From Thermodesulfobacteriota bacterium (GTDB taxonomy: Bacteria; Desulfobacterota; Binatia; Bin18), in contig OZ219926.1 in NCBI GenBank assembly GCA_964291405.2, positions 1,824,001-1,888,000 on the forward strand: a stretch of DNA of 64,000 nt. Direction: 5' to 3'. The position numbers and the translations under genes were made by a program. This document shows positions 1 to 21,838 of the stretch, one piece after another (within the stretch, counting starts at the first letter, position 1; every line of letters starts with the position of its first letter). Under the pieces are notes generated by a model. That model was not told the origin of the DNA. It did not search any database and saw only the letters and a program-made list of their open reading frames with translations.

Positions 1-273
1 GGTCTGAGCGCGGTCCCGCAGGCACCGATTGTTCCGTACGAGGCGGCTGCCGCGTTGGCTATGCTGCTCTTGCGGGATTATGGCATTCTGGCGGTTCATT
101 TCGCCGCCCTGCCACCCGGTACGGCCGATTTCCTGTTCAAGTTTATGCCGCCAGACACGGTAGAGCGATTCGGCGGGCCGGATGCTTTCGCCCAGGCTAT
201 TGATGCCTCACTGCACAAGCTGGCGGGCCTGGTCACCCGGCCCGAACATATGCGGCAACTCTTGTTCGGTTAA
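1..273 (+). CDS. C-terminal part of a PLP-dependent enzyme, probably MJ0158/SelA-like family (5' truncated by the window edge)
   Basis: Frame is open from base 1 (GLSAVPQAPIVPYEAAAALAMLLLRDYGILAVHFAALPPG...) to TAA at 271-273. Family recalled from the C-terminal sequence only. Confidence 0.45.
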   Translation, partial: GLSAVPQAPIVPYEAAAALAMLLLRDYGILAVHFAALPPGTADFLFKFMPPDTVERFGGPDAFAQAIDASLHKLAGLVTRPEHMRQLLFG

Positions 274-324
274 CACTCCAGCAGGCAAACAACACCGCGC
301 TCATTGGCCTAATGGGCCGCCACC

Positions 325-416
325 CCTCAAAACGGCTCCAACTGATCCGCGGTCTTTTTCCTCCGGGGCGGCGCCTGACTCCGGCGACGTTCGAGCAGTT
401 GTTCCTTAATATCGGC
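325..416 (-). repeat. Diverged duplicate of the last 29 codons plus stop of the EndoQ-UvrD gene (att-like island boundary)
   Basis: Ungapped match to 4397-4488, 76/92 identical by manual alignment. Encodes ADIKEQLLERRRSQAPPRRKKTADQLEPF* versus ADIEEHLLERRRSQLSARGKKKADQLELF*. Confidence 0.9.
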
Positions 417-626
417 CTATGGGCTTGGCCGATGCCTCTCTTGTGTGCTTGGCAGACTAGCTCGGAATACGAGATATCTTTACGCTTGACCGAAACGACT
501 TTCAGACTTATCGACTGCACGGCCTGCGTACGTTTCATCTCTGACCGTAATTTGACGGCTTAGAAACTGAACCAACCAATCAAGCCCCTTTACCTAAATC
601 GTTTCTGGGATAGCATCCCTCTTGCC

Positions 627-2195
627 TTACCCAGATTCTTCTGCGGTTGCAGGAGGCGGTGCACTGCTTGCAGCTTCACAGCCCGTAGTAGATACATTAT
701 TTAAGATTTCTTTAAGCCTTTCCAGATAGGTCGGATGTGATTCTTTGCCAAGGGCTTCTATGGCTTCTTTATTGTCTTCATTTACCTTAGAGAAGGCAGC
801 GATGGCGGCTCGGGTTCTTCGACCAAAGTCACCGTCGATATTAGTTTTTCCATCTTTACGGGTTTGCGCCAGACATCCCATGTCGACGAGGCGTTGCTGG
901 ACCTGGCTTACCTCATTGGATTCTTTCGGTTCGAATTTTGGCTCAATGTGAACCAACAGAGTTGCTCGCCCTCTACCAGAATCTTTGAGGCTCAAAGTAT
1001 AAGTCTCACGCTTGGCTTGGGCGGTCACGGTTATCTCCACCTCAGCATCGTCTGCGCTACCATAGTCATGATTCACGGGCTGGAGACTGACATCCACCCC
1101 AGGTGTCTGACCTATCCACCGAGCCGAGTAGGGAGGCACGCCACCGCTCAGATAGATTTTTGTGAGACGGTCAGGCGTCGCCGCACTGATATGGACACTA
1201 GAGGCTGGATCGACGCGAAACGTTAGGCCAGCCGAGGTTGCGTCAATCTGACTACATGCTTCGATTTGTTCACTATCTGGACCGGTATCGAGTCCAATCA
1301 GCATCTGTTCAATGACGGCGGTCTGCTCTTTAACGGCGTCAGCAGCATCTCGCAATGGGTTTAATATATGATCACTAAGTTTTGTTGTTAGCTCTCCGGG
1401 GGCGTCCAAAGGTTGGCCGGTGATCAGACCAGCCTGGATAGGAATAGTTTTAGACAACGTGGCGACGAGACTCGCTACATCCGGTTCGGATTCGGTTAGT
1501 GCTTTAGTGACTTTTGACCGGATGAGGTGAACCGCATCGTACAACGTGACGGCGGCTCGTTTCCGTAACGTTTTGACTGTACCACCTTTTTCCAGAGCTG
1601 CCTCAGCGTTACTGAAAATGATTCCTGCCCGGACAACGTCAGGACTCTCATCTCCCCGTTTCTTTTTGGCAATGTCAAGCTTCGTTTTCAGATCTGGTAA
1701 GGCATTGCGGAGTGTCGTCATTTTCATGTCTAGGTCACGATCGAAACCCGTACTATCTATAGCCCGTACGGGTCCGAATACTGTCAGGGTGCAGGTAAGA
1801 GCGTCGATACCAGCTTGATAAGCAAGCAGCTTTGGCCGCCCGTGTAGCCAATTACGCAGACTGTAGAGCCCAGCCCCACCGACGCCGAGGCCTGTGATAG
1901 CATCCGAGCTCCCGTTAGTAATACCTAGAACGAGTGCGGCTGCGGTTGATCCAATAAGAGTAGATCCTACCGCTCGGTTAAAGCCAGTGTGCTCGCGAAT
2001 GGCTTGATAATAGACCCCTCGGGTATCTTCGGCATATTTCACCGCATTCGTTAACGATTTGGTTTCCCTGAAGAGGTCATCCTTAGGCTCGACATATGGG
2101 TCCACGACAGCCATACACGAGGCTAAGACACACAGGAGTATTGCGAAAGCAATGAAGCTAGCAGTACAGTTGAACCAACGGGTATACATGTACAC
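627..2195 (-). CDS. Lipoprotein with helical N-terminal region and C-terminal peptidoglycan-binding-like domain
   Basis: 522-aa ORF (ATG at 2189 may be the true start). Hydrophobic leader with lipobox-like VLASC. C-terminal VSQVQQRLVDMG...IDGDFGRRTRAAIAAF resembles PG_binding_1. Confidence 0.65.
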   Translation of the reverse strand: MYMYTRWFNCTASFIAFAILLCVLASCMAVVDPYVEPKDDLFRETKSLTNAVKYAEDTRGVYYQAIREHTGFNRAVGSTLIGSTAAALVLGITNGSSDAITGLGVGGAGLYSLRNWLHGRPKLLAYQAGIDALTCTLTVFGPVRAIDSTGFDRDLDMKMTTLRNALPDLKTKLDIAKKKRGDESPDVVRAGIIFSNAEAALEKGGTVKTLRKRAAVTLYDAVHLIRSKVTKALTESEPDVASLVATLSKTIPIQAGLITGQPLDAPGELTTKLSDHILNPLRDAADAVKEQTAVIEQMLIGLDTGPDSEQIEACSQIDATSAGLTFRVDPASSVHISAATPDRLTKIYLSGGVPPYSARWIGQTPGVDVSLQPVNHDYGSADDAEVEITVTAQAKRETYTLSLKDSGRGRATLLVHIEPKFEPKESNEVSQVQQRLVDMGCLAQTRKDGKTNIDGDFGRRTRAAIAAFSKVNEDNKEAIEALGKESHPTYLERLKEILNNVSTTGCEAASSAPPPATAEESG

Positions 2196-2211
2196 TTCCC
2201 CTGCTGAGCTA

Positions 2212-3279
2212 TCAGGCGACTAGGGTTTGCAAAGCGTTTTTACGTTCTGCGTCGAAGCGATTCTGAACGGCCTTTTTCTCTCGTACAGTAGAACTCGTAA
2301 AGTAAATGTCGACTTTAGAGCGTTCATCGTAGATAGCATTAATAAGAGCTCTGTCAGAAGCCTGAAGGGCAGGACTTAAGGTATTAAGCGCACGGGTAAA
2401 AATATGGACACTACGAGGTCCGTGCTGGACACTGACCGACCAAGCCACATCGCGCAGGACTTTGGACCGTGTCGCGATATCAAAGCCATGGTGTCTGGAC
2501 AATGTGTTCACAAAGACGTCGTAGTGAGTAGCCTTGATATAGTCGTGTTGGGCTGTAGAGAAGGCAGGATCAGTGGCCAGTTCCTTCCACGCGGCTTGAA
2601 AGCTCGGGGTACCCGCACGCGCTTGGGCGTCACCGCCCGCGGCTTCAAGTTCGTCCGCAAAGGTCTGGTAAGCCATTCGTGTTTTAAGAAAGTCAATAAA
2701 GTCGCGGATTCGACGCTTATTGGAAGCCAGTTGGTAGAGGCCATAGGACCATCCTCCGTTTTTGTCACGGCCAATGGCAGCAGGATTTCCTCTAGATTCA
2801 TACCGGCGTGATAAGATTCCTAATTCTTCTTTGGGAGCGTGAATTAAATCGCCGGGTTTGAGGACGCAATTGCCATAGGCGGCTTTCTCAAAGGCAACCC
2901 CCATTTCCTGAGGCTCACACTTCCCTTGCCTAAAGAGTGCCCAATGAACCAGTTCGTGGAGGATGGTGGCTTCAATAAGTTTCTGTTTGTTTACATTGGT
3001 AGAGTCTTGCTCAAAATCATTAACCAATTTTTTGCCAAGATTGATAGTGTCGGGCAGACTCTCATCAAATTGACCATAAGACCCTTTTAGATCGTATATA
3101 AACAGCCGGGGACAGGTTCCAAATAGGAGAGCATTGCGGGCCGTTTCTTGGGGATACTGAGTGTGGCCTAAGAATGCCTCCCAGACTTGGGTTTTAGATT
3201 CGATCTGCGGCAATTCGGTTTTGACCCAGCTAGTCAATATTCGATAAGATTTTTGTTGGACCCCTAGTATCTTGACCAT
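2212..3279 (-). CDS. Two-domain enzyme: HEXXH zinc metallopeptidase (Tox-MPTase3-like) fused to a VgrG3-C-like lysozyme-type peptidoglycan hydrolase
   Basis: ATILHELVHW...EMGVAFEKAAYG motif, then LGILSRRYESRGNPAAIGRDKNGGWSYGLYQLAS...WSVSVQHGP. Strong AGGAG RBS. No signal peptide. Confidence 0.7.
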   Translation of the reverse strand: MVKILGVQQKSYRILTSWVKTELPQIESKTQVWEAFLGHTQYPQETARNALLFGTCPRLFIYDLKGSYGQFDESLPDTINLGKKLVNDFEQDSTNVNKQKLIEATILHELVHWALFRQGKCEPQEMGVAFEKAAYGNCVLKPGDLIHAPKEELGILSRRYESRGNPAAIGRDKNGGWSYGLYQLASNKRRIRDFIDFLKTRMAYQTFADELEAAGGDAQARAGTPSFQAAWKELATDPAFSTAQHDYIKATHYDVFVNTLSRHHGFDIATRSKVLRDVAWSVSVQHGPRSVHIFTRALNTLSPALQASDRALINAIYDERSKVDIYFTSSTVREKKAVQNRFDAERKNALQTLVA

Positions 3280-3375
3280 AGATACTTTCTCCTTTTTATG
3301 TTGATGACATCAACTATCCGTTCTGCCTTCCTCCTGCGTAATACAAATAATCTACACCTGTGGGCTGCTCTGCGA

Positions 3376-4272
3376 TTAGAGTCGGACTTTTGACGCACGC
3401 GCGTCTTCCAAAAGATCCAGGAGTTTCGGCCAAAAGTCTGGGGCGGCCTCGTCTCCTAATGTTGCGGTACGATCCTCCCCAACAATGTCTTCTGTAGTAA
3501 GAAAGCGTTCGATAGCCTCACGCGTCTTCGGACCGAGGAATCCATCGTCCAAACGTCGCCCATCTTCGCTCACAGGGGGCAAGTAGTTGAGCGTAATGAG
3601 ATGGGTTTGTACCTGTTGGATAGTGTGGTCTGAGCCTAAGGGGTGTTCGTCCGTATCGAGATTGTCACTCCTCGATTGAAGTGGCTCGATCTGTGGGCTT
3701 ACCTTGGAGCCAATCTCGTCTTCGCGTATCACCGGTTTGCTAGGCATAAACAAGTTATCAATCAAATCGCTGAGTTTGTCCGCAACTTGCCTGGAGAATA
3801 GTCCACTTAACCCTGCAAGAAGGATTACGAAATAGATGTGTGAAGGAATATTGAGTTCTAACTCTCCAAACACGCCAGCCCGGACTGCAACATAGACAAG
3901 CAAGGCTAACATCGTCCCGATTGGAATACGTACATAGAGCCACCACAACCAACTACGCACGAGCTGACGGTTGCCTGCAAATGTAGCAAACGATGTCATA
4001 GTATGAATGGCACTGCCTGTCGCTCCGGCGAGCACCACCAGCAGAAGCAACTGGCTTGGCGAGATGCAGTCGCTCAAACATGTTTCCGTCGTAGTTTGTT
4101 GAGCACCAACGGTTGGTAGAAACCACAGTAGGAGTCCCAGGATTACACCAGAGATGAGCATCAATGGAACCCCATATTTCCAGTAATCTTTGATCGCAAT
4201 ATAGACCCGCTTTGGGCGATACTCATCGACCTCGATGTTAGGCATGCTTAAATTGTCCGAGAAATTCTGCAT
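3376..4272 (-). CDS. Membrane protein (~4 TM) with C-terminal peptidoglycan-binding-like domain
   Basis: ORF 3376..4311; ATG 4272 has AGGAG 8 nt upstream. Hydrophobic segments GATGSAIH...VRIPIG...LAGLSGLFSRQVADKL. C-terminal IQQVQTHLITLNY...DDGFLGPKTREAIERF. Confidence 0.65.
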   Translation of the reverse strand: MQNFSDNLSMPNIEVDEYRPKRVYIAIKDYWKYGVPLMLISGVILGLLLWFLPTVGAQQTTTETCLSDCISPSQLLLLVVLAGATGSAIHTMTSFATFAGNRQLVRSWLWWLYVRIPIGTMLALLVYVAVRAGVFGELELNIPSHIYFVILLAGLSGLFSRQVADKLSDLIDNLFMPSKPVIREDEIGSKVSPQIEPLQSRSDNLDTDEHPLGSDHTIQQVQTHLITLNYLPPVSEDGRRLDDGFLGPKTREAIERFLTTEDIVGEDRTATLGDEAAPDFWPKLLDLLEDARASKVRL

Positions 4273-4396
4273 TATCTGTACTCCTAATGGGATATGAAGA
4301 GTTTCGATCACTTATTATTCTTTCGCATTCCAGATCAGTTCCTAGCTGAGAATGGTCTCCTCGAACTCATTATTGTCAACGGGGAAATGCCATCCA

Positions 4397-4488
4397 CCTC
4401 AAAACAGCTCCAACTGATCCGCTTTCTTCTTCCCCCGTGCACTCAACTGACTCCGACGACGTTCGAGGAGGTGTTCCTCAATATCGGC
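4397..4488 (-). repeat. In-gene copy of the duplicated 3' end (att-like island boundary)
   Basis: Matches 325-416. Similarity stops abruptly at the shared GCCGATATT (minus strand) end. Confidence 0.9.
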
Positions 4489-7400
4489 TAAATACGGGGA
4501 GGGTGACATGGGTTGCATCATCCCACGCCAGCGGCGTTTCTGTGCATGACACAGATAGAGTTTGGTTTTTGCCCGCGTGACGCCGACGTAGAACAGACGG
4601 CGCTCTTCCTCAAGGTCGGCAGCTTCGGCCTTGCCCCAGGTCAGCGGGAGAATGCCATCTTCACAGCCAACGATAAAAACAACGGGGAATTCCAAACCCT
4701 TGGCGGCGTGGAGGGTGAGTAAGGAAATCCGGTCGGCGCGTGGGTCCCAGGTATCGACCTGCGTTTCGAGCGCAAGGGCGGAGAGAAATCGATCCAGATC
4801 GTCCCCACACTCCTGAGCGACGGGTTGCAGGAGTTCAAGGGCCGCTCTTGTCTCCTCTCCTGCCCCAGTGGCCTCAGTTTTTTCACACGCGGCTTCAAGC
4901 CGCGCAACCAGAGTACCGTCGCCGGGCTGTTCGCGCAGAGTGTCGATCAGTATCGCCATACCAGGATGGTCGAGCAGCCGCGTATGGGCGTGTTTCTGAA
5001 ACGGCATACCCGAACGGTGGAGGGCTTCAACAACCGCCTCTGCTTGGGCTTCGGTTCGGTACAGCACGACGATGTCAGAAAAGGAGACGGCCCGGTCTTC
5101 GGCGTCTCGGGATCGACCGCTATCGATCGAAAAGAAGCTGTGTCCACCCAGCAGCGTTTCGATTGAGTGCACGACGAACTCGGCCTCGGCCTTCTCCGTC
5201 CGCGCCTCATGCAGCGTGATTAAACTTGGGGTGTCGGCAAGAACCGGAGTGGATTTCTGCTCAGACCCGGACGGTGCAATGACCTGGGAAGAGAGATGGA
5301 CGATGTTACTGTCAGACCGATAATTCCGCGTCAGGCGGACTACCTGCGTACCGGGGAAATCAGTAGTGAACTGGGCGAAGAAACGGACGTCCGCCCCACG
5401 GAAACGATAGATCGCCTGATCCGGATCGCCAATCGCACAGATGTTACCGTCGGACGGCACGAGCAGCTTGATGAGACGGGCCTGCTGCTCGTCCACGTCC
5501 TGATATTCGTCAATACACACCCATTGGTAGCGCTCACGATAGACGTCACGCAGGCCGGAGTCGGCCTCGAAGGCCTGGATCGTGCGGCCAATCAGATCAT
5601 CGAAGTCGACCAGATTCCGCGCGTCCAATTCCCGTTGGTATCGGTGATAGACTTCGGCCTGCCGAGCCTCAGCCGGCGCCTGTCCCGTTCGTTTTGCCAC
5701 CGAAATGGCTGACAGCAGGCTGCGTGTCCGGCGAGCCGAGACGCCAAGTGTTTCGCGCAGCAGATGTTGACGCTCCGCGTCTGACGCGACCCGAAAGCCC
5801 CGTTGGAGACCTGCCGCGTTCCAATGTTCCTGGAGAACGGACAGGCCCAAAGCGTGAAATGTAAAAAGCGGAATCGTATCGGCAACAGCGGGCAGAAGAC
5901 GGTGTAAGCGTTCGCGCATTTCGTCCGCAGCTCGGCGGGTAAACGTGATGGCCAAGCAGTGTTCGGGACGGACGCGGTGGGTGCGGATGAGATGGGCGAT
6001 ACGATGTGTGAGAGTGCGCGTTTTTCCAGAACCCGGTCCGGCAACAATCAGCAGCGGGCCTGCTATAATCTCGGCGGCCCTCCGCTGGTCGCTATCAAGT
6101 CCGGCTAAGATATCTGCGGACGGCACCGCTGTTGTATCGTCTGAAGGTGCAGGAGACACGCTGGGAGTATGGGTTAGTGCAGCGTCTGCTTTTCGCCGTG
6201 TCGCTCTTCTCTGCTTGGGACTGTCCACTACACGCACATCGGTCGACGTATTTTCCTGCTTGGTCTGGAGTGGGGGCTCCTGTGTGAACAACGACGCGCC
6301 GCTCGTCTTTTGGCGCAGCTCTTCCTCCCGGAACAGCCTGATTGTTCCGTACACACCGTCATAACCAGCTTCGCGGATCACTTCTTGTTTGCGCAGTCGG
6401 GAGATGGCTTCCGCAATAAGCGTGTCTCCGCCTTTCCGAATCTCTTCTAGCGGAATATCGTTGATCAATTGCAGTTCGGGCCCAAGGTGGTTGAGTAAGC
6501 CCTCGTAGTAGTGGCCCACCTTTTTACTCTTCGGACCTACATGCAGAATCTCGGATAACATCTCGGGGAGAGGAACAAGGCTCTGGACCGCGCCGGCAGT
6601 CTCGGGCTGAGTGTCGTCTTCACGGTCGGCCAAATCGTCCACCCGGTGCATCACGCCCACCGTCAGCGGCTTGCCACACGCAGGACAACGGCCCTCAAAT
6701 TGTTTGGTCTGGTGCGGTAGGAGGCGGACCAGACAATTTCGATGCCCGTCCAGGTGGTATTTGCCCTCTTCAGGAAAAAACTCGATCGTGCCCTGATACC
6801 CCTGTCCGGTCTCCAGGGCGCGACGGATCGAGAAATAGTCAAGCTCCGTATCAAACACACAGGCTTCGCGCCCGAGCTTCTCCGGCGAGTGTGCATCGGA
6901 GTTTGACACCAACCGGAAGCGATCTAGAGACGACACCCGCCAGTTCATCTCCGGGTCCGACGACAAGCCCGTCTCCACCGCAAAGATATGGGGAGCCAGG
7001 TCAGCGTAACACTCGTCTATGGCATCAAAACCGGACTTTGAGCCCAGCGCGGCAAACCACGGTGTCCAGATATGGGCCGGGACGAGATACGAGCCAGGGT
7101 CCGACTCCAACGTGATTTCCAAGAGGTGGCGGGAGTCCAGCCCCAGGATAGGTCTGCCGTCCGACTTCACATTCCCGATCCTGGACAACCGTTCGGTCAT
7201 CCTTTCCACTGCCGAAAAGTTTGGGGCGTATAACAAATGGTGAATCTTTCGGGTCTTGTCGCCCTTTTTGTAGATCGTCGAGATTTCAACCGAGAGCATG
7301 AAACGTGTCGTACCCTGGCACGCTGACGGTAGCATCTGGGCGACTTCTTTTTCCAGCTCGGGGCGGAGGCGGAACAGGCCCGGCTCGGCAGGTACCAACT

Positions 7401-7563
7401 GCTCCTTGAGTTCGGCCTGCCAGACCGGATGGGTGAAGTCCCCGGTGCCGACGACCGTGATACCCTTTTTCCTGGCCCAGTAGGCAAGATGTTTTAAATC
7501 ACAGTTTTTACTGGTGGCGCGGGAATATTTGGAATGAATGTGCAGATCAGCATAAAAGGCCAT
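4399..7563 (-). CDS. Endonuclease Q (PHP family) fused to a UvrD/PcrA-like SF1 helicase
   Basis: N-terminal DLHIHSKYSRATS, GTGDFTHP, SNSDAHS, GKYHLDGHRNC and CPACGK zinc site. C-terminal AGPGSGKT, DEYQD, IGDPDQAIYRFRGA, LTRNYRS, TLHAAKGLEF, EERRLFYVGVTRA. Confidence 0.93.
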   Translation of the reverse strand: MAFYADLHIHSKYSRATSKNCDLKHLAYWARKKGITVVGTGDFTHPVWQAELKEQLVPAEPGLFRLRPELEKEVAQMLPSACQGTTRFMLSVEISTIYKKGDKTRKIHHLLYAPNFSAVERMTERLSRIGNVKSDGRPILGLDSRHLLEITLESDPGSYLVPAHIWTPWFAALGSKSGFDAIDECYADLAPHIFAVETGLSSDPEMNWRVSSLDRFRLVSNSDAHSPEKLGREACVFDTELDYFSIRRALETGQGYQGTIEFFPEEGKYHLDGHRNCLVRLLPHQTKQFEGRCPACGKPLTVGVMHRVDDLADREDDTQPETAGAVQSLVPLPEMLSEILHVGPKSKKVGHYYEGLLNHLGPELQLINDIPLEEIRKGGDTLIAEAISRLRKQEVIREAGYDGVYGTIRLFREEELRQKTSGASLFTQEPPLQTKQENTSTDVRVVDSPKQRRATRRKADAALTHTPSVSPAPSDDTTAVPSADILAGLDSDQRRAAEIIAGPLLIVAGPGSGKTRTLTHRIAHLIRTHRVRPEHCLAITFTRRAADEMRERLHRLLPAVADTIPLFTFHALGLSVLQEHWNAAGLQRGFRVASDAERQHLLRETLGVSARRTRSLLSAISVAKRTGQAPAEARQAEVYHRYQRELDARNLVDFDDLIGRTIQAFEADSGLRDVYRERYQWVCIDEYQDVDEQQARLIKLLVPSDGNICAIGDPDQAIYRFRGADVRFFAQFTTDFPGTQVVRLTRNYRSDSNIVHLSSQVIAPSGSEQKSTPVLADTPSLITLHEARTEKAEAEFVVHSIETLLGGHSFFSIDSGRSRDAEDRAVSFSDIVVLYRTEAQAEAVVEALHRSGMPFQKHAHTRLLDHPGMAILIDTLREQPGDGTLVARLEAACEKTEATGAGEETRAALELLQPVAQECGDDLDRFLSALALETQVDTWDPRADRISLLTLHAAKGLEFPVVFIVGCEDGILPLTWGKAEAADLEEERRLFYVGVTRAKTKLYLCHAQKRRWRGMMQPMSPSPYLADIEEHLLERRRSQLSARGKKKADQLELF

Positions 7564-7676
7564 GGGCCGCCCTCCCCTCCTACCCGGTCCGGGGATTATC
7601 CACTGAGAGAAGGAGGGAGGTCAACGGCCTGTATTCCAGAACGGCAAGGGGAGCGGATTTCCGGGCCTTGAGGACC

Positions 7677-9092
7677 TTACCGGCCCAGTGCTCTATAGTG
7701 TTCAGCCAGCACGCGGGCCACACACGCAGTCAGCCGTTTGCCCATCGAGAGTTCCAGAAACTCATTCGGTCCGTGCGCGTTCGAGTGTGGCCCGAGCACA
7801 CCGGTAATCATGAACTGGGCGGTGGGGAATTTTTCACCCAGCATGGCCATAAATGGGATCGTCCCGCCCTCGCCTATGGCACACATGTCTCTGCCGAAAA
7901 ACTCCCGCGAGGCACTCTGCAAGGCAGTCTCCAGCCACGGAGCGGGCGGGGGGGCGTTCCAGCCGCCCGCCGCCCATTCGGGCTCAAAGGATACCTGTGC
8001 ACCATAGGGCGGGTCATTCTCCAGGAGCTGTTGCAACGCGGCTGAAGCCGCGTTCGCGTCCAGGGTCGGTGGAATCCGCAGCGACACCTTGGCCGCGGTA
8101 ACGGGCCGCAGGACATTACCGGCTTGCTCAAGCGCGGGCAGACCAGCCGCACCGGTAATTTCGAGTTGAGGCCGCCAGGTCCGGTTGAGCAGGAGCTGAC
8201 GGATATCGTCCGTCACTGCCTGGGCTCCGGGATGAAAAGGAAATTCTGCTGAGGCGGTCTGCCCCAACACGGTCGCGGTTGTTCGGGCCTGTTGCAGTCG
8301 TTCGTCCGGTATTTCAACCTGAAATTCGGGCGGCAGGACCTCTCCGGTTCGTTCGTCTTCGAGGCGGCTCAGGAGTTGGCGCAGAATACGAAAGCTTGAA
8401 GGAACGATGCCGCTGGCTGCGCCTGAGTGAACTCCTTCGGTGAGAGTAGAAACGGACAGATTTCCTGACACCAGGCCGCGTAAAGAAGTCGTAATCCAGA
8501 GCTGGTCGTAGTTGCCACAGCCCGAGTCAAGGCAGACGACGAAGCTGGGCGTACCGATGCGGTCGGCCAGGGCATCCATATAATAGGGCAAATCTCCACT
8601 GCCACTCTCCTCGCAGGCTTCGATAATGACCACACAGCGGGCAACCGGAACGCCCTGACGCTTGAGCGCCGCAATGGCGGTCAGGGAAGCACAGGCTGCA
8701 TAACCATCGTCGGCGCCTCCACGCCCGTATAGCTTGCCGTCTCTCAGCACCGGCTGCCACGGGCCGAGCCCGTCATGCCAGCCGTCCATGGGCGGCTGCT
8801 TATCCAGGTGACCGTAGAGCAGCACGGTTTCGGCCGAATCGCCCGGAACCTCGATAAAGAGTAAGGGCGTACGGCCTTCAAGCCGGACCACCTCAAGACT
8901 CAGACCGGGAACCGCTTGGCCGCGAATCCAGCCGGCGATGAGTTCGACAGCCTGATCCAGATAGCCGTTCGTCTGCCAGTCCGGATCGTAGGCTGGGGAT
9001 TGGTTAGGGATGGCTAGGTATTCTGTCAGGGTGGGGGTAATACTGTTATCCCAGGTGGATTCGACAAATTGCCAGGTTTTTTGGGTATCCAT
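7677..9092 (-). CDS. M20/M25/M40 family metallopeptidase (dipeptidase-like)
   Basis: YGHLDKQPP, GRGGADDG, EACEESGS, HSNAHGPNE motifs. ATG 9092 preferred over TTG 9128. Confidence 0.9.
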   Translation of the reverse strand: MDTQKTWQFVESTWDNSITPTLTEYLAIPNQSPAYDPDWQTNGYLDQAVELIAGWIRGQAVPGLSLEVVRLEGRTPLLFIEVPGDSAETVLLYGHLDKQPPMDGWHDGLGPWQPVLRDGKLYGRGGADDGYAACASLTAIAALKRQGVPVARCVVIIEACEESGSGDLPYYMDALADRIGTPSFVVCLDSGCGNYDQLWITTSLRGLVSGNLSVSTLTEGVHSGAASGIVPSSFRILRQLLSRLEDERTGEVLPPEFQVEIPDERLQQARTTATVLGQTASAEFPFHPGAQAVTDDIRQLLLNRTWRPQLEITGAAGLPALEQAGNVLRPVTAAKVSLRIPPTLDANAASAALQQLLENDPPYGAQVSFEPEWAAGGWNAPPPAPWLETALQSASREFFGRDMCAIGEGGTIPFMAMLGEKFPTAQFMITGVLGPHSNAHGPNEFLELSMGKRLTACVARVLAEHYRALGR

Positions 9093-9188
9093 ACGGGAAT
9101 TGTAACCGGCTGTCGGGTCCGTTGCCAATCCGGTCTAGCCGTCCGGCCCCCAACTCGGTAAGCTGACAGTCTCAAGGAGGTTGACGCT

Positions 9189-9542
9189 ATGGCAGAACTC
9201 GTTGTGTATCACAATCCTGGTTGAGGCAAGTCACGCGGAGCGCTCGATATTTTGCAGGAGCGCGGCGTCGAGTTCGACGTGATTGAATATCTCAAGAGCC
9301 CCCTCAGCCGAGGAGACTTTGAGCATTTTCTGGACCTGTTGCCGGATGAACCCGCGGAACTGGTCCGTAAGGATAAGAAATTCAAGGAACTCGGTCTGAG
9401 CGCGGACGACTATGTGACGCGCGAGGCCGTGGTCGAGGTCTTACTCCAGCATCCTGAGCTGATGCAGCGGCCGGTTATTATCAGGGATCAAAAGGCGGTC
9501 ATCGCCAGGCCATCCGAAAAGGTGCTGGAGCTGCTGGATTAG
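9189..9542 (+). CDS. arsC: ArsC/Spx-family arsenate reductase-like selenoprotein (in-frame TGA at the catalytic Cys)
   Basis: AGGAGG RBS, ATG 9189, MAELVVYHNPG-TGA(9222-9224)-GKSRGALDILQ continuing in frame into ORF 9252..9542 (HPELMQRPVI...IARP). The TGA aligns with the Cys of the ArsC HNPxCSKSR motif. Confidence 0.85.
9233..9268 (+). promoter_or_regulatory. Candidate bacterial SECIS hairpin
   Basis: Stem GCGCTC(9240-9245)/GAGCGC(9258-9263) with lower pairing ACGC/GCGT, starting 9 nt after the UGA. Confidence 0.5.
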
Positions 9543-9547
9543 CGAAG

Positions 9548-9578
9548 GGTCGGATTACGCTACGCTAATCCGACCTAC
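9548..9578 (-). repeat. GTAG-type REP palindrome between convergent arsC and miaB
   Basis: Minus strand GTAGGTCGGATTAGCGTAGCGTAATCCGACC; overlaps the miaB stop codon. Confidence 0.7.
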
Positions 9579-10894
9579 AGATCATCCGCACGCGCAGGTA
9601 CGCCCACTAGAGTATGGGCATTGGCGGAGGTCACCCGGACCGGCACCAACTCGCCGGGCCGGGCTCCGTTGCCGGGGAAGACTACTGTTTTGAACTGCGG
9701 GTCCTTCCCCGCGAGCCAATCTTTTTGCTTCTTGGCCGGCCCTTCAACCAGGACCTCCACGGACTGACCCACCCGTTGTCGGTTGATCTCTCCCCCAATG
9801 CCTTCCTGCAGGCGGATAATCTCCTGTAAACGCTGTCCCTTTTCCTGTTCCGAAAGGGTCTCGCCCCACTTATAGGCCCGTGTCCCCTCGCGGGCCGAGT
9901 ACTTGAACATAAAGGCGAAATCGTAGCGGACCTCCGCCATAAAGTCGTAGGTGGCACGAAAATCGTCTTCCTCTTCGCCCGGAAAGCCGACAATAATATC
10001 CGTCGACAAGGCCAGGTGGGGGATGGCTGCGCGCAGCCGGTCCACAAGCGCGGCATATTCTTCGATCGAGTAGCCCCGTTCCATACGCTCCAGGACCCGA
10101 TTCGAGGCGGCCTGGAGCGGCAGGTGGAGATACGGGACGACCTTGTCACAGGTCGCCATGGCGTCAATTGCACTAGCATCCATATCGGATGGATGCGGCG
10201 AGGTAAAACGAATCCGCTCAATCCCATCGATGCACGCGGTCTGGCGCAGGAGGCGGCCAAAATCGACCTCGCCATCCCGGTAGGCGTTGACGGTCTGGCC
10301 CAGATAGACGACTTCTTTATACCCTTGGTCGGCAAGCGCTCGGACTTGGTCTAATAATGCCGACGCGGGCACACTGCGTTCCCGTCCGCGGACGTAGGGC
10401 ACGATGCAGAATGTGCAGAACTTGTCGCAGCCCCGCATGATGGTCACCCACGCTCGCACCCCTTCCCCGCGCGCGGGCGCAATATCGGCATAGGTTTCAT
10501 CCCGGTCGAGACGGACGGACACCAGCGGTTCCTCAGCACTCTCCTGCGCCAGCAAGGCCGGCAGGTTACGATAGGCATCCGGTCCTAGCACCAGATCAAG
10601 AAAGGGGGCTTTATCGAGCAGGGCATCCCGATGGTGCTGGGCCATGCAGCCGGTGAGCCCCAGGACGACACTTGGATTCCGGGCTTTATACTGCACCAGA
10701 TCGCCCAGTCGCCCGATGATGCGTTCTTCCGCGTGCTCCCGAATCGCACAGGTATTCAGCAGGATGACATCGGCGCCCTCCGGCGTAGGCGTGGATTCGT
10801 ATCCCTGCGGTTTCAGCACGCCCAGGATGAGCTCGGTGTCAGCGATATTCATCTGACAGCCGTAGGTTTCAATATAGACGGTCCGTAGTTCCAT
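9575..10894 (-). CDS. miaB: tRNA-2-methylthio-N6-dimethylallyladenosine synthase MiaB
   Basis: ETYGCQMN, NTCAIRE, GCMAQ, radical SAM GCDKFCTFCIVPYVRG and C-terminal TRAM domain. Alternative start 10930. Confidence 0.95.
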   Translation of the reverse strand: MELRTVYIETYGCQMNIADTELILGVLKPQGYESTPTPEGADVILLNTCAIREHAEERIIGRLGDLVQYKARNPSVVLGLTGCMAQHHRDALLDKAPFLDLVLGPDAYRNLPALLAQESAEEPLVSVRLDRDETYADIAPARGEGVRAWVTIMRGCDKFCTFCIVPYVRGRERSVPASALLDQVRALADQGYKEVVYLGQTVNAYRDGEVDFGRLLRQTACIDGIERIRFTSPHPSDMDASAIDAMATCDKVVPYLHLPLQAASNRVLERMERGYSIEEYAALVDRLRAAIPHLALSTDIIVGFPGEEEDDFRATYDFMAEVRYDFAFMFKYSAREGTRAYKWGETLSEQEKGQRLQEIIRLQEGIGGEINRQRVGQSVEVLVEGPAKKQKDWLAGKDPQFKTVVFPGNGARPGELVPVRVTSANAHTLVGVPARADDL

Positions 10895-11015
10895 AGCGTC
10901 CCTGGCAGGGAATTTTTGTAGCCGTTCCATGACCGCAAAGCAACGGCTATAGTGGATGGCCGCCGGTAGACTGTCACGGTGCGGTTTTTATGTAAAAGCA
11001 AATATCTGGAGATGT

Positions 11016-11930
11016 ATGGCCGCACGCATTATCTCACTCCTGCCCAGCAGTACGGAAATTGTCTGCGCGCTGGGTCTGCGCGAGCACCTCGTCGGCGTCT
11101 CTCACGAGTGTGACTATCCCTCGGACGTTATCGGGCTTCCCATCTTGACCGAACCCAAACTTGATCCCCGCGGAACCAGCGGTGACATCGATACCCGAGT
11201 CCGTGAGATTGTGCAGGAGGGGTTGAGCGTCTACCGTCTGCAAACCGAGGCATTACAAAGGTTGAAGCCGGACCTCATCGTGACCCAGGACCAGTGTGAG
11301 GTGTGTGCCGTTTCCCTGCCCGAGGTTGAAGACGCCGTGCAGTGTTTTCTGACTCCGGACGTGACCGTCGTATCGCTCAGACCGGAGAAACTCGACGATA
11401 TCTGGACGGATATCCGTCGGGTCGCCCAGGCCACCGATCAGGAAAAAGCCGCGTACGTACTGATCCAGGACGCAAAAGAACGTCTCTGGAACATCGCCCA
11501 AAAGACTCGGCATTTACCCCGTCCGCGGGTGGCCTGCCTGGAATGGCTCGACCCCCTCATGGCGGCGGGCAACTGGATTCCGGAACTGGTGGATATTGCG
11601 AGCGGGGAATATGGCCTGGTTGAGGCCGGCGCGCATACACCAACGCTGACCTGGGAGGCCCTGGTCGCCTACCAACCGGAGGTCATCGTTATCACCCCGT
11701 GCGGATTCAAAATCCCACAGTCGCAGGCAGACCTGCCACAACTGACGGCGCATCCAGACTGGCAAGCCCTCCCGGCCGTGCAACAGAACCGGGTATATGT
11801 GGCAGACGGCAATGCCTATTATAACCGGCCCGGTCCGCGCATTGTGGAGAGTACGGAAATCCTCGCCGAGATGCTGCATCCGGAAGCATGCGCCGGCATG
11901 GCGGTGCCGGGCTCCTATATTCAGGTCTGA
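11016..11930 (+). CDS. BtuF-like (cobalamin/iron) solute-binding-fold protein
   Basis: RIISLLPSSTEIVCALG, VGVSHECDYP, TQDQCEVCAV, DGNAYYNRPGPR. No signal peptide from ATG 11016. Confidence 0.8.
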   Translation: MAARIISLLPSSTEIVCALGLREHLVGVSHECDYPSDVIGLPILTEPKLDPRGTSGDIDTRVREIVQEGLSVYRLQTEALQRLKPDLIVTQDQCEVCAVSLPEVEDAVQCFLTPDVTVVSLRPEKLDDIWTDIRRVAQATDQEKAAYVLIQDAKERLWNIAQKTRHLPRPRVACLEWLDPLMAAGNWIPELVDIASGEYGLVEAGAHTPTLTWEALVAYQPEVIVITPCGFKIPQSQADLPQLTAHPDWQALPAVQQNRVYVADGNAYYNRPGPRIVESTEILAEMLHPEACAGMAVPGSYIQV

Positions 11931-11980
11931 GCGATTCTGACAGTCGTCAGGGAAGGACGTGTCCTTGCGCGGTGTTCCTC

Positions 11981-12322
11981 TCACTCGCTGGGATCAAGAA
12001 TCTCAATCTTTCCATCTCGGAAATCCCGACCTCGTTCTTTTACCATGTGGGGATAGCTGTGGTAGAACTGCCCGCCGAGACGCAGGAAGGACTCCACTTC
12101 GGTCTCTTCAAGATCGAGGTCTTCAATGGCGCTAACCGCGTCCGCCTGGCTGGAGGCGTTGACTAAGACGTCAAAAATCAGTTGGCTTTCCGCGGTCTGG
12201 AAATCCTCGCGGCTCGGCAGCTCGTCACGGTTCTGCATACTCTCCGGATGGTTATCCAGAAGATAGCGGAGCGCCTTGAGTTCATGTCGCTGTTGATCCA
12301 GCTTTCTTATTTTTTCAGGCAT
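11981..12322 (-). CDS. Hypothetical acidic protein (113 aa)
   Basis: ORF fills the gap and has a GGAG RBS. Weak resemblance (EDFQTAESQLIFDVL) to DnaB N-terminal-type helical domains. Confidence 0.6.
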   Translation of the reverse strand: MPEKIRKLDQQRHELKALRYLLDNHPESMQNRDELPSREDFQTAESQLIFDVLVNASSQADAVSAIEDLDLEETEVESFLRLGGQFYHSYPHMVKERGRDFRDGKIEILDPSE

Positions 12323-12341
12323 GGATAGTCTCCTCTGTCAT

Positions 12342-12370
12342 GTAGGGGCGGGTTTCAAACCCGCCCCTAC
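12342..12370 (+). repeat. GTAG-type REP palindrome
   Basis: GTAGGGGCGGGTTTCAAACCCGCCCCTAC inverted repeat in a divergent spacer. Confidence 0.75.
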
Positions 12371-12390
12371 CTAGTATATACACAGGAGCT

Positions 12391-12909
12391 ATGGCTGTGA
12401 CAGAGCATAAAGGCAAAGCCCACCGCACGGTCAGGTGCGCCGTAATTACCCTGAGCGACACCCGGACCGAAGAGACGGATACGAGCGGTAAACGCATCAA
12501 AGACCTCCTGGCTGAGCAGGGTCAGCCTGTTGTCTCGTATCGTATTCTCAAGGACGAACCGGAGCAGATCACGGCGGTCGTGCAGGCTCTCCTGGCCCAG
12601 CCGGAGGTTGACGCGATTATCACCAACGGCGGAACCGGTATTGCGCCGCGCGACACGACGTTCGAGGCGATCCAAGGCCTGCTCGAAAAAGAAATCACCG
12701 GTTTTGGCGAGATGTTCCGCATGCTGAGCTACGCAGACATTGGCGCTGCGGCTATGCTGACCCGCGCCACCGCAGGGGTCGCGAACGGGAAAGTCATTAT
12801 TTCTTTGCCCGGTTCAACCGGGGCGGTCGAGCTGGGCATGACCAAACTGGTCTTGCCGGAACTCGGCCATATGATGTTCCTGCTCCGGGGAGAACGCCAT
12901 GCACATTAA
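12391..12909 (+). CDS. moaB: Molybdopterin adenylyltransferase MoaB/MogA family
   Basis: VITLSDTR...DTSG, TNGGTGIAPRDTT, GFGEMFR, SLPGS. Confidence 0.92.
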   Translation: MAVTEHKGKAHRTVRCAVITLSDTRTEETDTSGKRIKDLLAEQGQPVVSYRILKDEPEQITAVVQALLAQPEVDAIITNGGTGIAPRDTTFEAIQGLLEKEITGFGEMFRMLSYADIGAAAMLTRATAGVANGKVIISLPGSTGAVELGMTKLVLPELGHMMFLLRGERHAH

Positions 12910-13615
12910 GTTACGCTTTTTTGCCTCGCTCCGAGAGCGACTCGGCCGCAGTGAAGGCAGTTGTGAAGTACCGGAAGGCGCAACGGTCAGGACGGTTTGG
13001 GAGACGCTCAAACAAGAGCATCCGGCCCTCGTCGAGGTTGAGCGTTCGCTCGCCTTTGCCGTCGCCCAAGAATACGTTGACGGAGATCACCCCCTGCACG
13101 ATAACGATGAGCTGGCCTTTATCCCGCCAGTGAGTGGCGGCGTTCTGATGGACAGTCGTCTGTCCTGTCGGATTACCCAGGATCCGATTCGCCTGGACGA
13201 GTTGACCGCCTTTGTGGCCGACCCCGGCGCGGGCGCCATGGCAACATTTGTCGGCACGACCCGAGACACCAATGAGGGCCGGCGAGTCATTCGGCTGGAA
13301 TACGAGTGTTATCCCGGTATGGCGGAAAAAGAGATGGAAAAGATCAGCCAAGAGGTCCTGGAGCGCTGGCCAGTGAAAAAAATCGCCATGCTACATCGGC
13401 TCGGTCGGGTCGATATTGGAGAGGCCAGTGTGGCCATAGCCGTATCGTCCAGTCACCGCCACGCCGCGTTTGAGGCGTGTCATTACGCGATCAATCAGCT
13501 CAAAGAAACGGTCCCGATCTGGAAGAAAGAACTGTACGAAGGAGGCGAAGTGTGGATAGGCTCACAGACGGGGAAAAACGGCACCCTCCACCCGAGCGGA
13601 AGCACCGAGCAGTGA
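12899..13615 (+). CDS. moaD/moaE: Fused molybdopterin synthase MoaD-MoaE
   Basis: MoaD ends at FIPPVSGG with no stop, followed by MoaE (GAMATFVGTTR, LEYECY, HRLG, LKETVPIWKKE). Confidence 0.92.
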   Translation: MHIKLRFFASLRERLGRSEGSCEVPEGATVRTVWETLKQEHPALVEVERSLAFAVAQEYVDGDHPLHDNDELAFIPPVSGGVLMDSRLSCRITQDPIRLDELTAFVADPGAGAMATFVGTTRDTNEGRRVIRLEYECYPGMAEKEMEKISQEVLERWPVKKIAMLHRLGRVDIGEASVAIAVSSSHRHAAFEACHYAINQLKETVPIWKKELYEGGEVWIGSQTGKNGTLHPSGSTEQ

Positions 13616-13645
13616 TGCATCGCAGCAGAACTGGACGCTAGGCGT

Positions 13646-14503
13646 ATGGCAACAGACATTCGGACGGTTGGGATTGTCGGCACGGGACAAATGGGGAGTG
13701 GAATCGGTCAGGTTGCTGCGCAGGCGGGTATGGCGGTGGTCCTCTACGACGTCAACCAGGAGATCGTTGACCGCGCGCTGGGAAACATCCAGAAGGGACT
13801 CGTGCGCCTGACGGACCGGAGCAAGTTGTCGCCTGATGAGCGAGACGCCATTCTCGGCCGTCTGCGTGGCACAGCCGTCCTCGAAGACCTGAGTGGTGCC
13901 GACGTCATTATCGAGGCCGCCCCGGAAGACTCGGCCATCAAGGAGGATATCTTTCGGAAGCTCGACCATATCGCCCGGCCAGAGGTCATCTTGGCCAGCA
14001 ATACCTCGTCCATCTCGCTGACCCAGCTCGGGGCGGTTACCAACCGGCCGGAAAAAGTCATTGGTATGCACTTCATGAACCCGCCGGTCGTCATGCAGCT
14101 GGTCGAGATTGTGCGCGGCCTGGCCACCGCTGACGAAACCTATACGACCATTGATGGGTTGGCCAAGAAAATGGGCAAAACCACGATTCAGGCCAAGGAC
14201 TATGCCGGTTTTGTGGTCAACCGCATCCTGTTGCCCATGATCAACGAAGCGATCTATGCCTTATACGAAGGGGTGGGCGGCGTGGAGGATATTGACCAGG
14301 GGATGAAGCTCGGCACCAACCAGCCCATGGGCCCACTCGCCCTGGCCGACCTTATCGGACTGGACACCTGCCTGGCGGTCCTGGAACGCCTGCACCACGG
14401 CCTGGGTGACGACAAATACCGCCCTTGCCCGCTGCTGCGCAACTATGTTGCGGCGCATTACTTGGGGAAAAAAACGGGCAAGGGTTTCTACGAATATAGA
14501 TAG
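13646..14503 (+). CDS. hbd: 3-hydroxybutyryl-CoA dehydrogenase
   Basis: GTGQMGSGI, LASNTSSIS, GMHFMNP, PMGPLALADLIGLD, GKKTGKGFY. Confidence 0.92.
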   Translation: MATDIRTVGIVGTGQMGSGIGQVAAQAGMAVVLYDVNQEIVDRALGNIQKGLVRLTDRSKLSPDERDAILGRLRGTAVLEDLSGADVIIEAAPEDSAIKEDIFRKLDHIARPEVILASNTSSISLTQLGAVTNRPEKVIGMHFMNPPVVMQLVEIVRGLATADETYTTIDGLAKKMGKTTIQAKDYAGFVVNRILLPMINEAIYALYEGVGGVEDIDQGMKLGTNQPMGPLALADLIGLDTCLAVLERLHHGLGDDKYRPCPLLRNYVAAHYLGKKTGKGFYEYR

Positions 14504-14516
14504 GGGTTCGGGATTC

Positions 14517-15674: not shown

Positions 15675-15689
15675 GGTCTTCTCCTTGTA

Positions 15690-16709: not shown

Positions 16710-16745
16710 CTAGGGATGTGTTCAATACCCTGGCTGAGCCGACCG

Positions 16746-18731: not shown

Positions 18732-18805
18732 GTGTCGTCCTTAATCGTCTGCGGATTTAAGGTATGGGAAACAACTCCCCAGCCTCTAATCCCCAATCCC
18801 TATTT

Positions 18806-19843: not shown

Positions 19844-19966
19844 ACGGTCCTCCTCTATCGCAGTCTCTTGCTTATCGGCGGTCTGTTGGGGTCAGGAAAA
19901 TACAAGGCTCCCCCTCCTATCAGATTCACACCACTCGCCCAACCTCCCTAGGCGGATGTGTGTCCG

Positions 19967-20022: not shown

Positions 20023-20066
20023 GTGGTATTTTCTCGGCACTCTTCTGCTTCCATAAGGAGAACTGC

Positions 20067-21713: not shown

Positions 21714-21724
21714 AGCAATCGCGT

Positions 21725-21828: not shown

Positions 21829-21838
21829 AGGCACCGCA

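Follow-up and report, generated by a model that had tools for sequence, protein, structure and literature searches.

A three-gene islet beside a helicase gene

The DNA analysed here is a stretch of 64,000 nucleotides (the window) from the genome of a Thermodesulfobacteriota bacterium (contig OZ219926.1, positions 1,824,001 to 1,888,000). Near its left end lie three co-oriented minus-strand genes, here called TM298, ENZ355 and LIPO520 in the order of their reading, inside a low-GC islet of 4.07 kb, of which 3.6 kb is coding (Table 1). They encode a membrane protein, a predicted bifunctional wall hydrolase without a signal peptide and a lipoprotein. The three parts recur together in other genomes, and the reading that we tentatively prefer is that the membrane protein and the lipoprotein are machinery that handles the hydrolase.

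The open reading frames (ORFs) span positions 3376-4311 (311 amino acids, aa), 2212-3279 (355 aa) and 627-2195 (522 aa), all on the minus strand. TM298 starts at the ATG at 4272, behind the Shine-Dalgarno sequence TAGGAG, and ENZ355 at the ATG at 3279, behind AAGGAG, giving products of 298 and 355 aa; the likely start of LIPO520 is the ATG at 2189 (520 aa). The chosen starts agree with the lengths of identical database gene calls (298, 355 and 520 aa). Gaps of 96 nt and 22 nt separate TM298 from ENZ355 and ENZ355 from LIPO520, respectively. The GC content is 0.46-0.53 across positions 501-4500, compared with 0.596 for 1-500 and 0.56-0.63 for 4501-12000. The ORF list and these values confirm the initial annotation of the locus, which had described three same-strand genes in an AT-richer islet. 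Independent contigs from two runs of two studies cover the islet almost identically (204-4426 with 0 differences and 256-3971 with 1), so it is no assembly artefact.

A TTGACA hexamer was read directly in the leader upstream of TM298, at about 4374-4379. A consensus scan for promoters and terminators returned one promoter-like site (4298-4271), and such sites were no more frequent than in shuffled sequence.

Table 1. Features of the islet and its borders, with window coordinates
Feature	Position	Strand	Basis or remark
Left repeat copy, duplicate of the helicase 3' end	325..416		Direct repeat D1; contiguous with the left flank; non-functional remnant
Non-coding distal islet end, downstream of LIPO520	417..626		No ORF of at least 60 aa wholly inside
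LIPO520, lipoprotein	627..2189	-	Lipobox, Pfam PG_binding_1, AlphaFold2 model
LIPO520, PG_binding_1-like tail	696..914	-	
LIPO520, Ig-like beta sandwich	942..1217	-	
ENZ355, predicted bifunctional enzyme without signal peptide	2212..3279	-	Pfam Tox-MPTase3 and T6SS_VgrG3-like_C, AlphaFold2 model
ENZ355, lysozyme-like domain	2245..2823	-	
ENZ355, Tox-MPTase3 domain	2872..3255	-	
TM298, inner-membrane protein (predicted), four hydrophobic segments	3376..4272	-	Hydropathy and charge, tail homology to LIPO520
TM298, PG_binding_1-like tail	3379..3636	-	
Leader, possible operon promoter	4273..4396	-	Between helicase stop codon and TM298 start; sequence read directly
Right repeat copy, helicase 3' end in use	4397..4488		Matches the G015/G004/G011 allele
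PHP-UvrD helicase gene, host gene of the insertion site	4399..7563	-	Pfam UvrD-helicase E 2.4e-72, UvrD_C, weak PHP_C

ENZ355 joins a zincin domain to a VgrG3-like lysozyme domain

Residues 9-136 of ENZ355 match Tox-MPTase3 (Pfam E 9.3e-18; 65.1 bits against a cut-off of 25), and residues 153-345 match the lysozyme-like domain T6SS_VgrG3-like_C (Pfam E 1.5e-37); a linker of about residues 137-152 connects the two. A database search returned 94 relatives, 18 of which, with the protein itself counted, carry both domains. These fused homologues are 353-382 aa long, and the other 17 share 41-53% identity with ENZ355. Invariant in all 18 are H108, E109 and H112 of the zincin motif HELVH (residues 108-112), F130, E131, E161, D172, S178, G180 and Q183. 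Because the catalytic-type residues are conserved throughout the fused homologues, both active sites look intact.

The AlphaFold2 (AF2) model has a mean predicted local distance difference test score (pLDDT) of 90, with confident helices at residues 6-51. No signal peptide was seen, and the N-terminus lacks a hydrophobic stretch in both the sequence and the model. The closest solved structure is the C-terminal muramidase of Vibrio cholerae VgrG3 (VgrG3C; chain 4nso_A: Z 22.2, root-mean-square deviation 2.2 A, 189 aligned residues, 30% identity), to which the lysozyme domain also aligns with a Foldseek TM score of 0.81 and a profile E of 3e-24. GH46 chitosanases (Z about 13.8) and T4-type lysozymes (Z about 8) follow, and residues 11-138 weakly resemble the minigluzincin selecase (4qhf_A, Z 7.0). 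Both the initial description of a signal-less fusion of HEXXH and lysozyme-like domains and the likeness seen then to Tox-MPTase toxins and the VgrG3 muramidase are therefore upheld.

LIPO520 is a lipoprotein with a peptidoglycan-binding-like tail

LIPO520 has the lipobox L-A-S-C with the lipidation-type Cys25, as read directly in its sequence (FIAFAILLCVLASC); a lipobox follows the motif [LVI][ASTVI][GAS]C behind a hydrophobic signal segment. Cys25, Cys133 and Cys312 are invariant in family alignments of 91 and 78 members, and the earlier designation of the product as a lipoprotein holds. In the AF2 model (mean pLDDT 86), the signal helix is followed by a helical bundle (residues 46-297), an Ig-like sandwich (325-416) and a three-helix tail (426-498). 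The bundle includes a conserved Gly/Ala-rich hydrophobic helical hairpin at about residues 75-113, residues 247-276 are disordered, and the protein ends in the soluble tail, with no C-terminal membrane segment.

The tail barely reaches the Pfam cut-off for PG_binding_1 (23.2 against 23 bits; E 7.8e-5). A profile of 78 relatives matches the peptidoglycan-binding domains of solved wall enzymes, namely 4xxt (3.6e-5), 4nso residues 11-65, 7rum, 1lbu and 5anz. In the five lipoproteins that accompany the fused enzyme, the tail always has a Cys in 'LGCL' and a C-terminal Cys. An exhaustive profile search placed at least 407 clusters in the family at E<=1e-30. In a Pfam scan of the 78 members, no family covered the first 420 residues, and PG_binding_1 was detectable in 16. 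For the bundle fold, Foldseek returned only Ig-domain matches and VIA-align gave generic long-helix matches (I-BAR, Z about 8.5, root-mean-square deviation about 7 A) under the noise level of helical bundles, and no new fold is claimed. From the Protein Atlas came nothing but leads scoring below 0.9, which pointed to Pseudomonadota proteins labelled hypothetical.

TM298 and the tail shared with the lipoprotein

Hydropathy gives TM298 four hydrophobic segments, in agreement with the roughly four expected initially, and residues 213-298 form a PG_binding_1-like tail. Sixteen homologues were collected by a word-index search, and G86, H90, S94, G100, R102, W108, W111, R115, Y127, Q162 and K166 are invariant. 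Beyond one weak match to PG_binding_1, searches of Pfam, NCBIfam, PHROGs and PADLOC gave nothing for TM298; no relative was found when its profile was compared with solved structures, and the Protein Atlas had no usable match. The tail stays under the Pfam PG_binding_1 cut-off (16 against 23 bits) and is joined to that family by its homology to the LIPO520 tail, as detected by BLASTP (32% identity over 76 aa, E 2e-9) and hhalign (probability 97.5%, E 7.4e-12, 82 columns). These comparisons substantiate the homologous C-terminal module that had been noticed in both flanking proteins.

In an alignment of 11 TM298 sequences, Lys and Arg residues (K+R) average 9.1 in the N-terminus, loop 2 and the region past the fourth segment taken together, compared with 2.2 in loops 1 and 3. 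Cys residues concentrate in loops 1 and 3, and the tail is free of them in 8 of the 11 sequences. This bias and the Cys clustering favour a topology in which both termini, and hence the tail, face the cytoplasm, and we put the odds of it somewhat above even. The other two membrane scaffolds found in related loci (L002 and L103, described below) likewise read as having a positively charged stretch immediately past the last membrane segment. The presence of Cys in the lipoprotein tails and its absence from most TM298 tails fit a location in different compartments. As to the two peptidoglycan-binding envelope proteins of the initial annotation, the designation may stand for LIPO520, the tail of which just meets the PG_binding_1 cut-off, and is doubtful for TM298, since the charge bias would place its tail in the cytoplasm.

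The trio recurs with exchanged hydrolase heads

We scanned 113 enzyme-seeded loci from genomes and metagenomes with a hidden Markov model (HMM) for each part. The fused enzyme was present in five (L002, L012, L035, L036 and L045), the MPTase3 domain only in 55 and the lysozyme domain only in 53. In all five loci with the fused enzyme, the lipoprotein adjoins it. The complete order of TM298, enzyme and lipoprotein genes was found in L012, a metagenome-assembled genome (MAG) of Gammaproteobacteria, and in L035, where the genes overlap or lie 16 nt apart. In L036, just the TM298 tail is visible at the contig edge, and in L045 the upstream DNA is too short to judge. L002, an Alphaproteobacteria MAG, has a changed gene order and a three-segment membrane scaffold that ends in the same tail (tail HMM E 3e-9). 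The flanks of L002, L012 and L035 are unrelated metabolic genes that differ from genome to genome.

A lipoprotein was also found in 3 of the 55 loci with MPTase3 only (L080, L083 and L103), many of these contigs being short, and neither the lipoprotein nor TM298 occurred in any of the 53 loci with the lysozyme only. In L080, a protein that fuses MPTase3 to Peptidase_M23 lies beside one that fuses an MPTase3-like domain to SLT, and the two share one lipoprotein; the locus also encodes one membrane protein that is distantly homologous to TM298 (hhalign 81.8%, E 1.1e-5) and has a tail matching PG_binding_1 (Pfam E 6.6e-5). In L103, a protein that joins MPTase3 to an unfamiliar C-terminal part is followed by the lipoprotein and then by a homologue of the L002 scaffold; the tail of this 434-aa membrane protein was not shown to be PG_binding_1-like (hhalign 0.3%; no Pfam match). 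In L083, a 149-aa MPTase3 protein and the lipoprotein stand without a tailed membrane protein, and directly upstream (5140-6662) lie genes for an extracytoplasmic function (ECF)-type sigma factor (Sigma70_r2) and a zf-HC2 anti-sigma-like membrane protein, which hints that related modules respond to envelope stress. Altogether, eight loci with MPTase3 and the lipoprotein could be assessed (the window, L002, L012, L035, L036, L080, L103 and L083); six have a verified tailed membrane protein, one (L103) has a scaffold homologue with an unverified tail and one (L083) has none. The enzyme, the lipoprotein and the tailed membrane protein thus recur together elsewhere, as expected of the self-contained module that had been proposed, and the lack of co-occurrence that had been named as speaking against it was not observed.

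Judged by these sequences, the zincin domain, the lipoprotein and the tail stay constant, and what varies is the hydrolase head (lysozyme, M23, SLT or the unfamiliar part) and the membrane scaffold. Every identifiable head acts on peptidoglycan, which means that the enzyme must reach a periplasm. A single lipoprotein and a single membrane protein beside different heads make head-specific immunity unlikely; the two proteins have the look of machinery or of zincin-domain partners.

The LIPO family also occurs outside the trio system. In the class of one of the two other carrier genomes (G433), 1 of 400 scored genomes had a member, and this was G433 itself; in the order of the other (G432), 5 of 91 genomes had one, G432 included. 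Three new hits, which are more distant family members (G843, G854 and G840; L221, L222 and L224), adjoin insertion sequence (IS) transposases, UvrA, or M4 and S8 peptidases. No MPTase3 was found near these three members, and the ORF scan did not recover a further hit, in G849.

The helicase 3' end is an insertion hotspot

The islet is bracketed by a direct repeat of 92 nt, the two copies of which (Table 1) are 83% identical. The right copy matches the helicase-end allele of three same-genus genomes (G015, G004 and G011), and the left copy resembles the allele of a fourth (G018). Ten genomes of the genus have helicase orthologues that are 86-94% identical with the whole protein uninterrupted (G015, G004, G006, G018, G010, G007, G011, G005, G013 and G017); in the remaining members, the helicase matches at 68-81% identity or only as two pieces.

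The helicase 3' region was compared in nine same-genus relatives (L125-L133). In four (G015, G004, G018 and G011) the site is empty, and the left flank (window 1-423) joins the helicase end directly. Three others (G005, G017 and G010) have inserts of 0.8-1.0 kb at the helicase end, which is again duplicated in G005 and G017. Two genes were recognised in the G005 insert, one for an antitoxin resembling Phd/YefM (E 3.7e-6, short of the Pfam cut-off) and one for a PIN protein (E 9.7e-16); the inserts of G017 and G010 contain near-identical ORFs of 88 and 151 aa, the family scan of these three inserts covering G005. The insert in G006 is about 2.2 kb long and has ArsR-type, AHSA1-like and RibD_C-type ORFs, and G013 has a different neighbour at the helicase end. 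The helicase 3' end is therefore a recurrent insertion hotspot in the genus. No integrase was seen in the islet or in any of the inserts of the relatives. Insertion by a Campbell-type single crossover, or by recombination supplied in trans, would fit, because the repeat copies are two natural helicase-end alleles of the genus.

Among 28 genomes of the genus, one had the enzyme, and the LIPO profile found nothing in 400 other genomes sampled from the phylum. We regard the islet as horizontally acquired and the module as mobile. In one sequencing run, the summed contig depth on the islet was about half that of the flanks, contig depth not being equal to copy number; the other run yielded a contig that has left-flank-like sequence (near 300-324; 30-letter consensus) in front of the helicase end and so resembles an empty site. 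In both samples, islet-bearing and islet-free strains seem to occur side by side.

As a separate observation on the helicase, the protein matches as two pieces in G001, G002, G012 and G016, with the break near residues 457-481, and the gene is a single open frame of 1099-1132 codons from stop to stop in these genomes, compared with 1073 in the window. This pattern suggests that an in-frame insertion separates the PHP part from the UvrD part.

Secretion, phage and defence context

TssC (PF05943) and Hcp (PF05638), components of a type VI secretion system (T6SS), were not found in the genome of the window, which is 97.5% complete, and TssC was not found in G432 or G433. ENZ355 contains its two domains only, with no RHS, PAAR or VgrG fusion. 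In the neighbouring proteins, Pfam matched only PG_binding_1 and Cadherin-like; no separate search with a TsiV3 model was made. We therefore rejected a T6SS effector, as TssC was not found in the three carrier genomes searched, nor Hcp in that of the window.

The lysozyme domain is common in viral contigs, where 203 relatives were found and 80 loci were kept (frames of 243-858 codons from stop to stop). None of the 80 viral loci with the lysozyme domain had MPTase3, the lipoprotein or TM298, and no TM298 relatives were found in viral contigs. The neighbours are the helicase, an M20 peptidase and metabolic genes, with no cargo gene nearby. A prophage lysis cassette was rejected because the viral lysozyme loci lack the other parts of the trio and no phage genes surround it. 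The absence of T6SS and phage genes, as stated at the outset, is thus borne out in the carriers and viral loci searched.

PADLOC-DB 2.0 gave no family at E<=0.1 for TM298, ENZ355 or LIPO520, NCBIfam gave noise only, and PHROGs matched only the lysozyme and peptidoglycan-binding modules, including an endolysin PHROG that covers the peptidoglycan-binding tail alone. A known defence system or named family was rejected on these grounds. The defence-island context that had been suggested as a check found no support, as PADLOC was silent and the neighbours in other genomes are metabolic rather than defence genes. No description of the trio was found in the literature searched on Tox-MPTase3, PF21277 and VgrG3-like proteins; it was not sought under other names.

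Proposed handling of the enzyme and predicted docking

The inner-membrane crossing of signal-less wall hydrolases outside phage lysis is understood in few systems, for example the type 10 secretion system (T10SS). We propose, with a probability of about 0.38, that the trio is dedicated machinery for handling a signal-less polymorphic wall hydrolase by the logic of holin, endolysin and spanin. The tail of TM298, presumably cytoplasmic, would dock or hold ENZ355, probably through the constant zincin domain, and the conserved polar membrane core of TM298 would gate its passage into the periplasm. LIPO520, lipid-anchored, may go to the outer membrane by the +2 rule, a lipoprotein sorting rule known from E. 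coli. It would extend to the wall by means of the long bundle of helices and a copy of the tail that is stabilised by a disulfide, and there receive, position or restrain ENZ355 at the peptidoglycan. The outcome would be a controlled breaching of the cell's own wall, local or global, brought about by protein families unrelated to those of phage lysis; candidate purposes are the release of cell contents, altruistic lysis and the export of the enzyme as a weapon. Machinery rather than head-specific immunity is favoured because one lipoprotein and one membrane protein serve different heads in L080.

In complex predictions, ENZ355 and the TM298 tail scored an ipSAE of 0.42, and the best of three controls scored 0.00. 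The three runs share at least 56% of their contacts, and the partner pLDDT is at least 76. In calibration, the mark for a complex was reached by 116 of 157 solved complexes and by 2 of 215 mismatched pairs; passes at scores <=0.60 comprised only 18 of the 157 solved complexes and both of the passing mismatched pairs. The model lends weak support to a docking of ENZ355 on the TM298 tail.

Several points weigh against this proposal. By the same calibration, passes in the range of 0.42 are wrong in the majority of cases, except where the pairing was likely beforehand. No part of the trio matches a holin, spanin or T10SS family; TM298, with 298 aa and many invariant polar residues, is unlike the holins familiar to us; and LIPO520 lacks both a C-terminal membrane anchor and an i-spanin partner. 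Neither a regulator gene nor a cargo gene lies in the islet, and a lysis cassette without regulation would kill the cell. The topology is also open to challenge, as 2 of 18 homologues of the TM298 core end in a TIG/IPT domain (E 9e-8 and 2e-7) instead of the PG_binding_1-like tail. TIG/IPT domains are usually extracytoplasmic, and together with the Ig-like and tail modules that LIPO520 would expose in the periplasm, parsimony could make the TM298 tail periplasmic.

A more specific form of the handling model, which we regard as speculative and improbable as it stands, is an as yet undescribed, minimal envelope delivery pathway for polymorphic wall hydrolases without signal peptides, in which the constant MPTase3 domain acts as a 'handle' that is recognised by the cytoplasmic tail of an interchangeable inner-membrane gate and, once across, passed to the homologous tail of the outer-membrane lipoprotein. 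If it were true, a peptidoglycan-binding fold would have acquired a second use, docking proteins on either side of the inner membrane.

The trio is built from two unannotated protein families, the LIPO family and the TM298 membrane core, and an enzyme that exchanges its heads. Docking and gating, if true, would represent a novel mechanism of export or lysis, put the PG_binding_1 fold to a new use and explain a widespread family of 'hypothetical lipoproteins'.

Comparison with known systems

The arrangement in lysis cassettes and T10SS is similar to that of the trio, with the gene of a signal-less muralytic enzyme standing between those of an inner-membrane protein and a lipoprotein in one operon; T10SS are chromosomal cassettes outside prophages, as the trio is. 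ENZ355, judged by its sequence, is a signal-less peptidoglycan hydrolase of the kind that such cassettes contain. The differences are considerable. Except for the lysozyme fold and the endolysin PHROG match confined to the tail, the trio matches no holin, spanin or endolysin family. Its membrane protein has 298 aa and a folded tail, its lipoprotein has 520 aa and a wall-binding-like tail without an i-spanin partner, and its enzyme has two catalytic domains, with no cargo gene nearby.

Serratia ChiWXYZ is reportedly an example of a T10SS, with a holin, a signal-less peptidoglycan hydrolase and a spanin. The islet has no Rz-like gene, no PHROG spanin match was obtained, and LIPO520 lacks the C-terminal anchor; neither a phage or prophage context nor an adjacent secreted cargo gene was found for the trio. 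TM298 matched no holin in Pfam, NCBIfam or PHROGs; holins are very diverse, and TM298 may still function like one.

VgrG3 is described as a peptidoglycan-targeting hydrolase with the immunity protein TsiV3/TsaB (PMC6099711). The VgrG3C fold (PDB 4NSO and 4NOO) is a clear relative of the ENZ355 lysozyme domain, and VgrG3 carries a PG_binding_1 module, the one that the LIPO520 tail profile matches in 4nso. Unlike VgrG3, ENZ355 lacks the VgrG, gp27 and gp5 spike portion, and in the trio the peptidoglycan-binding-like module sits on separate proteins and not on the enzyme. The VgrG3C-like lysozyme domain is not specific to T6SS, as its abundance in viral contigs shows, and neither a T6SS apparatus nor a VgrG, PAAR or Hcp fusion was found in the carriers searched.

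Tox-MPTase3 has been introduced as a toxin head tied to RHS repeats and to delivery by Photorhabdus virulence cassettes (PVC) or the type II secretion system (T2SS), and the table that covers it names no immunity protein (PMC3482391). The signatures given there, HExxH and F[DE] (Zhang et al. 2012), are both present in ENZ355 and invariant in 18 of 18 fused homologues. Unlike in those toxins, the domain is here the constant N-terminal part of short proteins (149-449 aa) with a variable C-terminal wall hydrolase; it is N-terminal in the 355-aa ENZ355 and not a C-terminal head on a long protein of the RHS or PVC type. This layout is nearer the N-terminal 'releasing peptidase' arrangement reported there for PVC-metallopeptidases (PMC3482391).

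The first part of LIPO520 has a likely counterpart in outer-membrane glycine-zipper lipoproteins such as SlyB/PCP, which we presume to share its N-terminal lipobox followed by a Gly/Ala-rich hydrophobic helical hairpin. LIPO520 differs from them in its additional bundle of about 250 aa, Ig-like domain and peptidoglycan-binding tail, and it matched no Pfam glycine-zipper family at E<=0.1. With regard to PG_binding_1 itself, the LIPO520 tail reaches the family cut-off in its sequence, and that of TM298 would belong through its homology to the lipoprotein tail.

Alternative explanations

The alternative that survives best, although we consider it unlikely, is an antibacterial polymorphic toxin, in which ENZ355 would be exported by some route and attack the walls of competitors, and LIPO520, perhaps with TM298, would bind the enzyme and so protect the producer. 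Both domain families of ENZ355 were described from interbacterial toxins (PMC3482391, PMC6099711), and a constant N-terminal domain with variable C-terminal heads is the pattern of polymorphic toxins. The patchy horizontal spread (1 of 28 genomes of the genus; no LIPO family member in the 400 other phylum genomes) and the Phd/PIN toxin-antitoxin cassettes at the insertion site in relatives point the same way. Periplasmic lipoprotein immunity proteins are common for wall-targeting effectors. However, no delivery system was found (TssC in 0 of 3 carriers, Hcp not found in the genome of the window), and the enzyme has neither a signal peptide nor an RHS, PAAR or VgrG fusion. The same LIPO family stands beside different heads, and the L080 lipoprotein serves two enzymes, which argues against a head-specific inhibitor; the immunity role first suggested for the envelope proteins, in its classical form, fits poorly with a LIPO family and tailed membrane proteins that accompany lysozyme, M23 and SLT heads alike. 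The loci share no further gene that would be a candidate for immunity. The lipoprotein, which has 520-670 aa and 407 clusters in its family, greatly exceeds in size the immunity proteins known to us, and the invariant polar residues of the TM298 membrane core suggest an active membrane function. If the trio were nevertheless a toxin-immunity set, it would represent a T6SS-independent route for VgrG3-like effectors.

Still less probable is a periplasmic scaffold, in which both tails would bind peptidoglycan or each other and form a bridge from the inner membrane over the wall to the outer membrane, steering a hydrolase that acts on the cell's own wall. The tails are true relatives of PG_binding_1 (LIPO520 Pfam E 7.8e-5, and the matches of the 78-member profile), the TIG/IPT tails of some TM298-core homologues have their like in a lipoprotein with both module types in the periplasm, and the ECF sigma/zf-HC2 pair of L083 points to envelope-stress regulation. 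Against this stand the charge bias (9.1 against 2.2 K+R), which would make the tail cytoplasmic and which has its parallel, by reading, in the two other scaffolds, and the presence in 1 of 28 genomes, the low-GC islet and the empty sites in relatives, with which a housekeeping role fits poorly; moreover, the enzyme would still have no entry route to the periplasm.

Abortive infection, in which the membrane protein would restrain the hydrolase and free it upon perturbation by a phage, so that the cell lyses before progeny are formed, appears quite improbable: the small size and mobility of the islet, its place at a variable hotspot with toxin-antitoxin genes elsewhere, and a latent signal-less lytic enzyme with membrane partners would suit it, and it is mechanistically compatible with handling by TM298 and LIPO520, only the trigger and the purpose being different, but PADLOC matched none of the three proteins, the neighbours elsewhere are metabolic rather than defence genes, and no sensor-like domain was found.

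Other features of the window

Five tandem ORFs of 858-893 aa lie on the plus strand at 43429-57134. Two of them were scanned and are TonB-dependent receptors (Plug and beta-barrel), which means that the host has an outer membrane. A cobalamin-linked cluster at 9575-25539 and 41691-43133 encodes a Peripla_BP_2-type periplasmic binding protein, methylmalonyl-CoA mutase, a B12-dependent methionine synthase and a B12-binding radical SAM protein.

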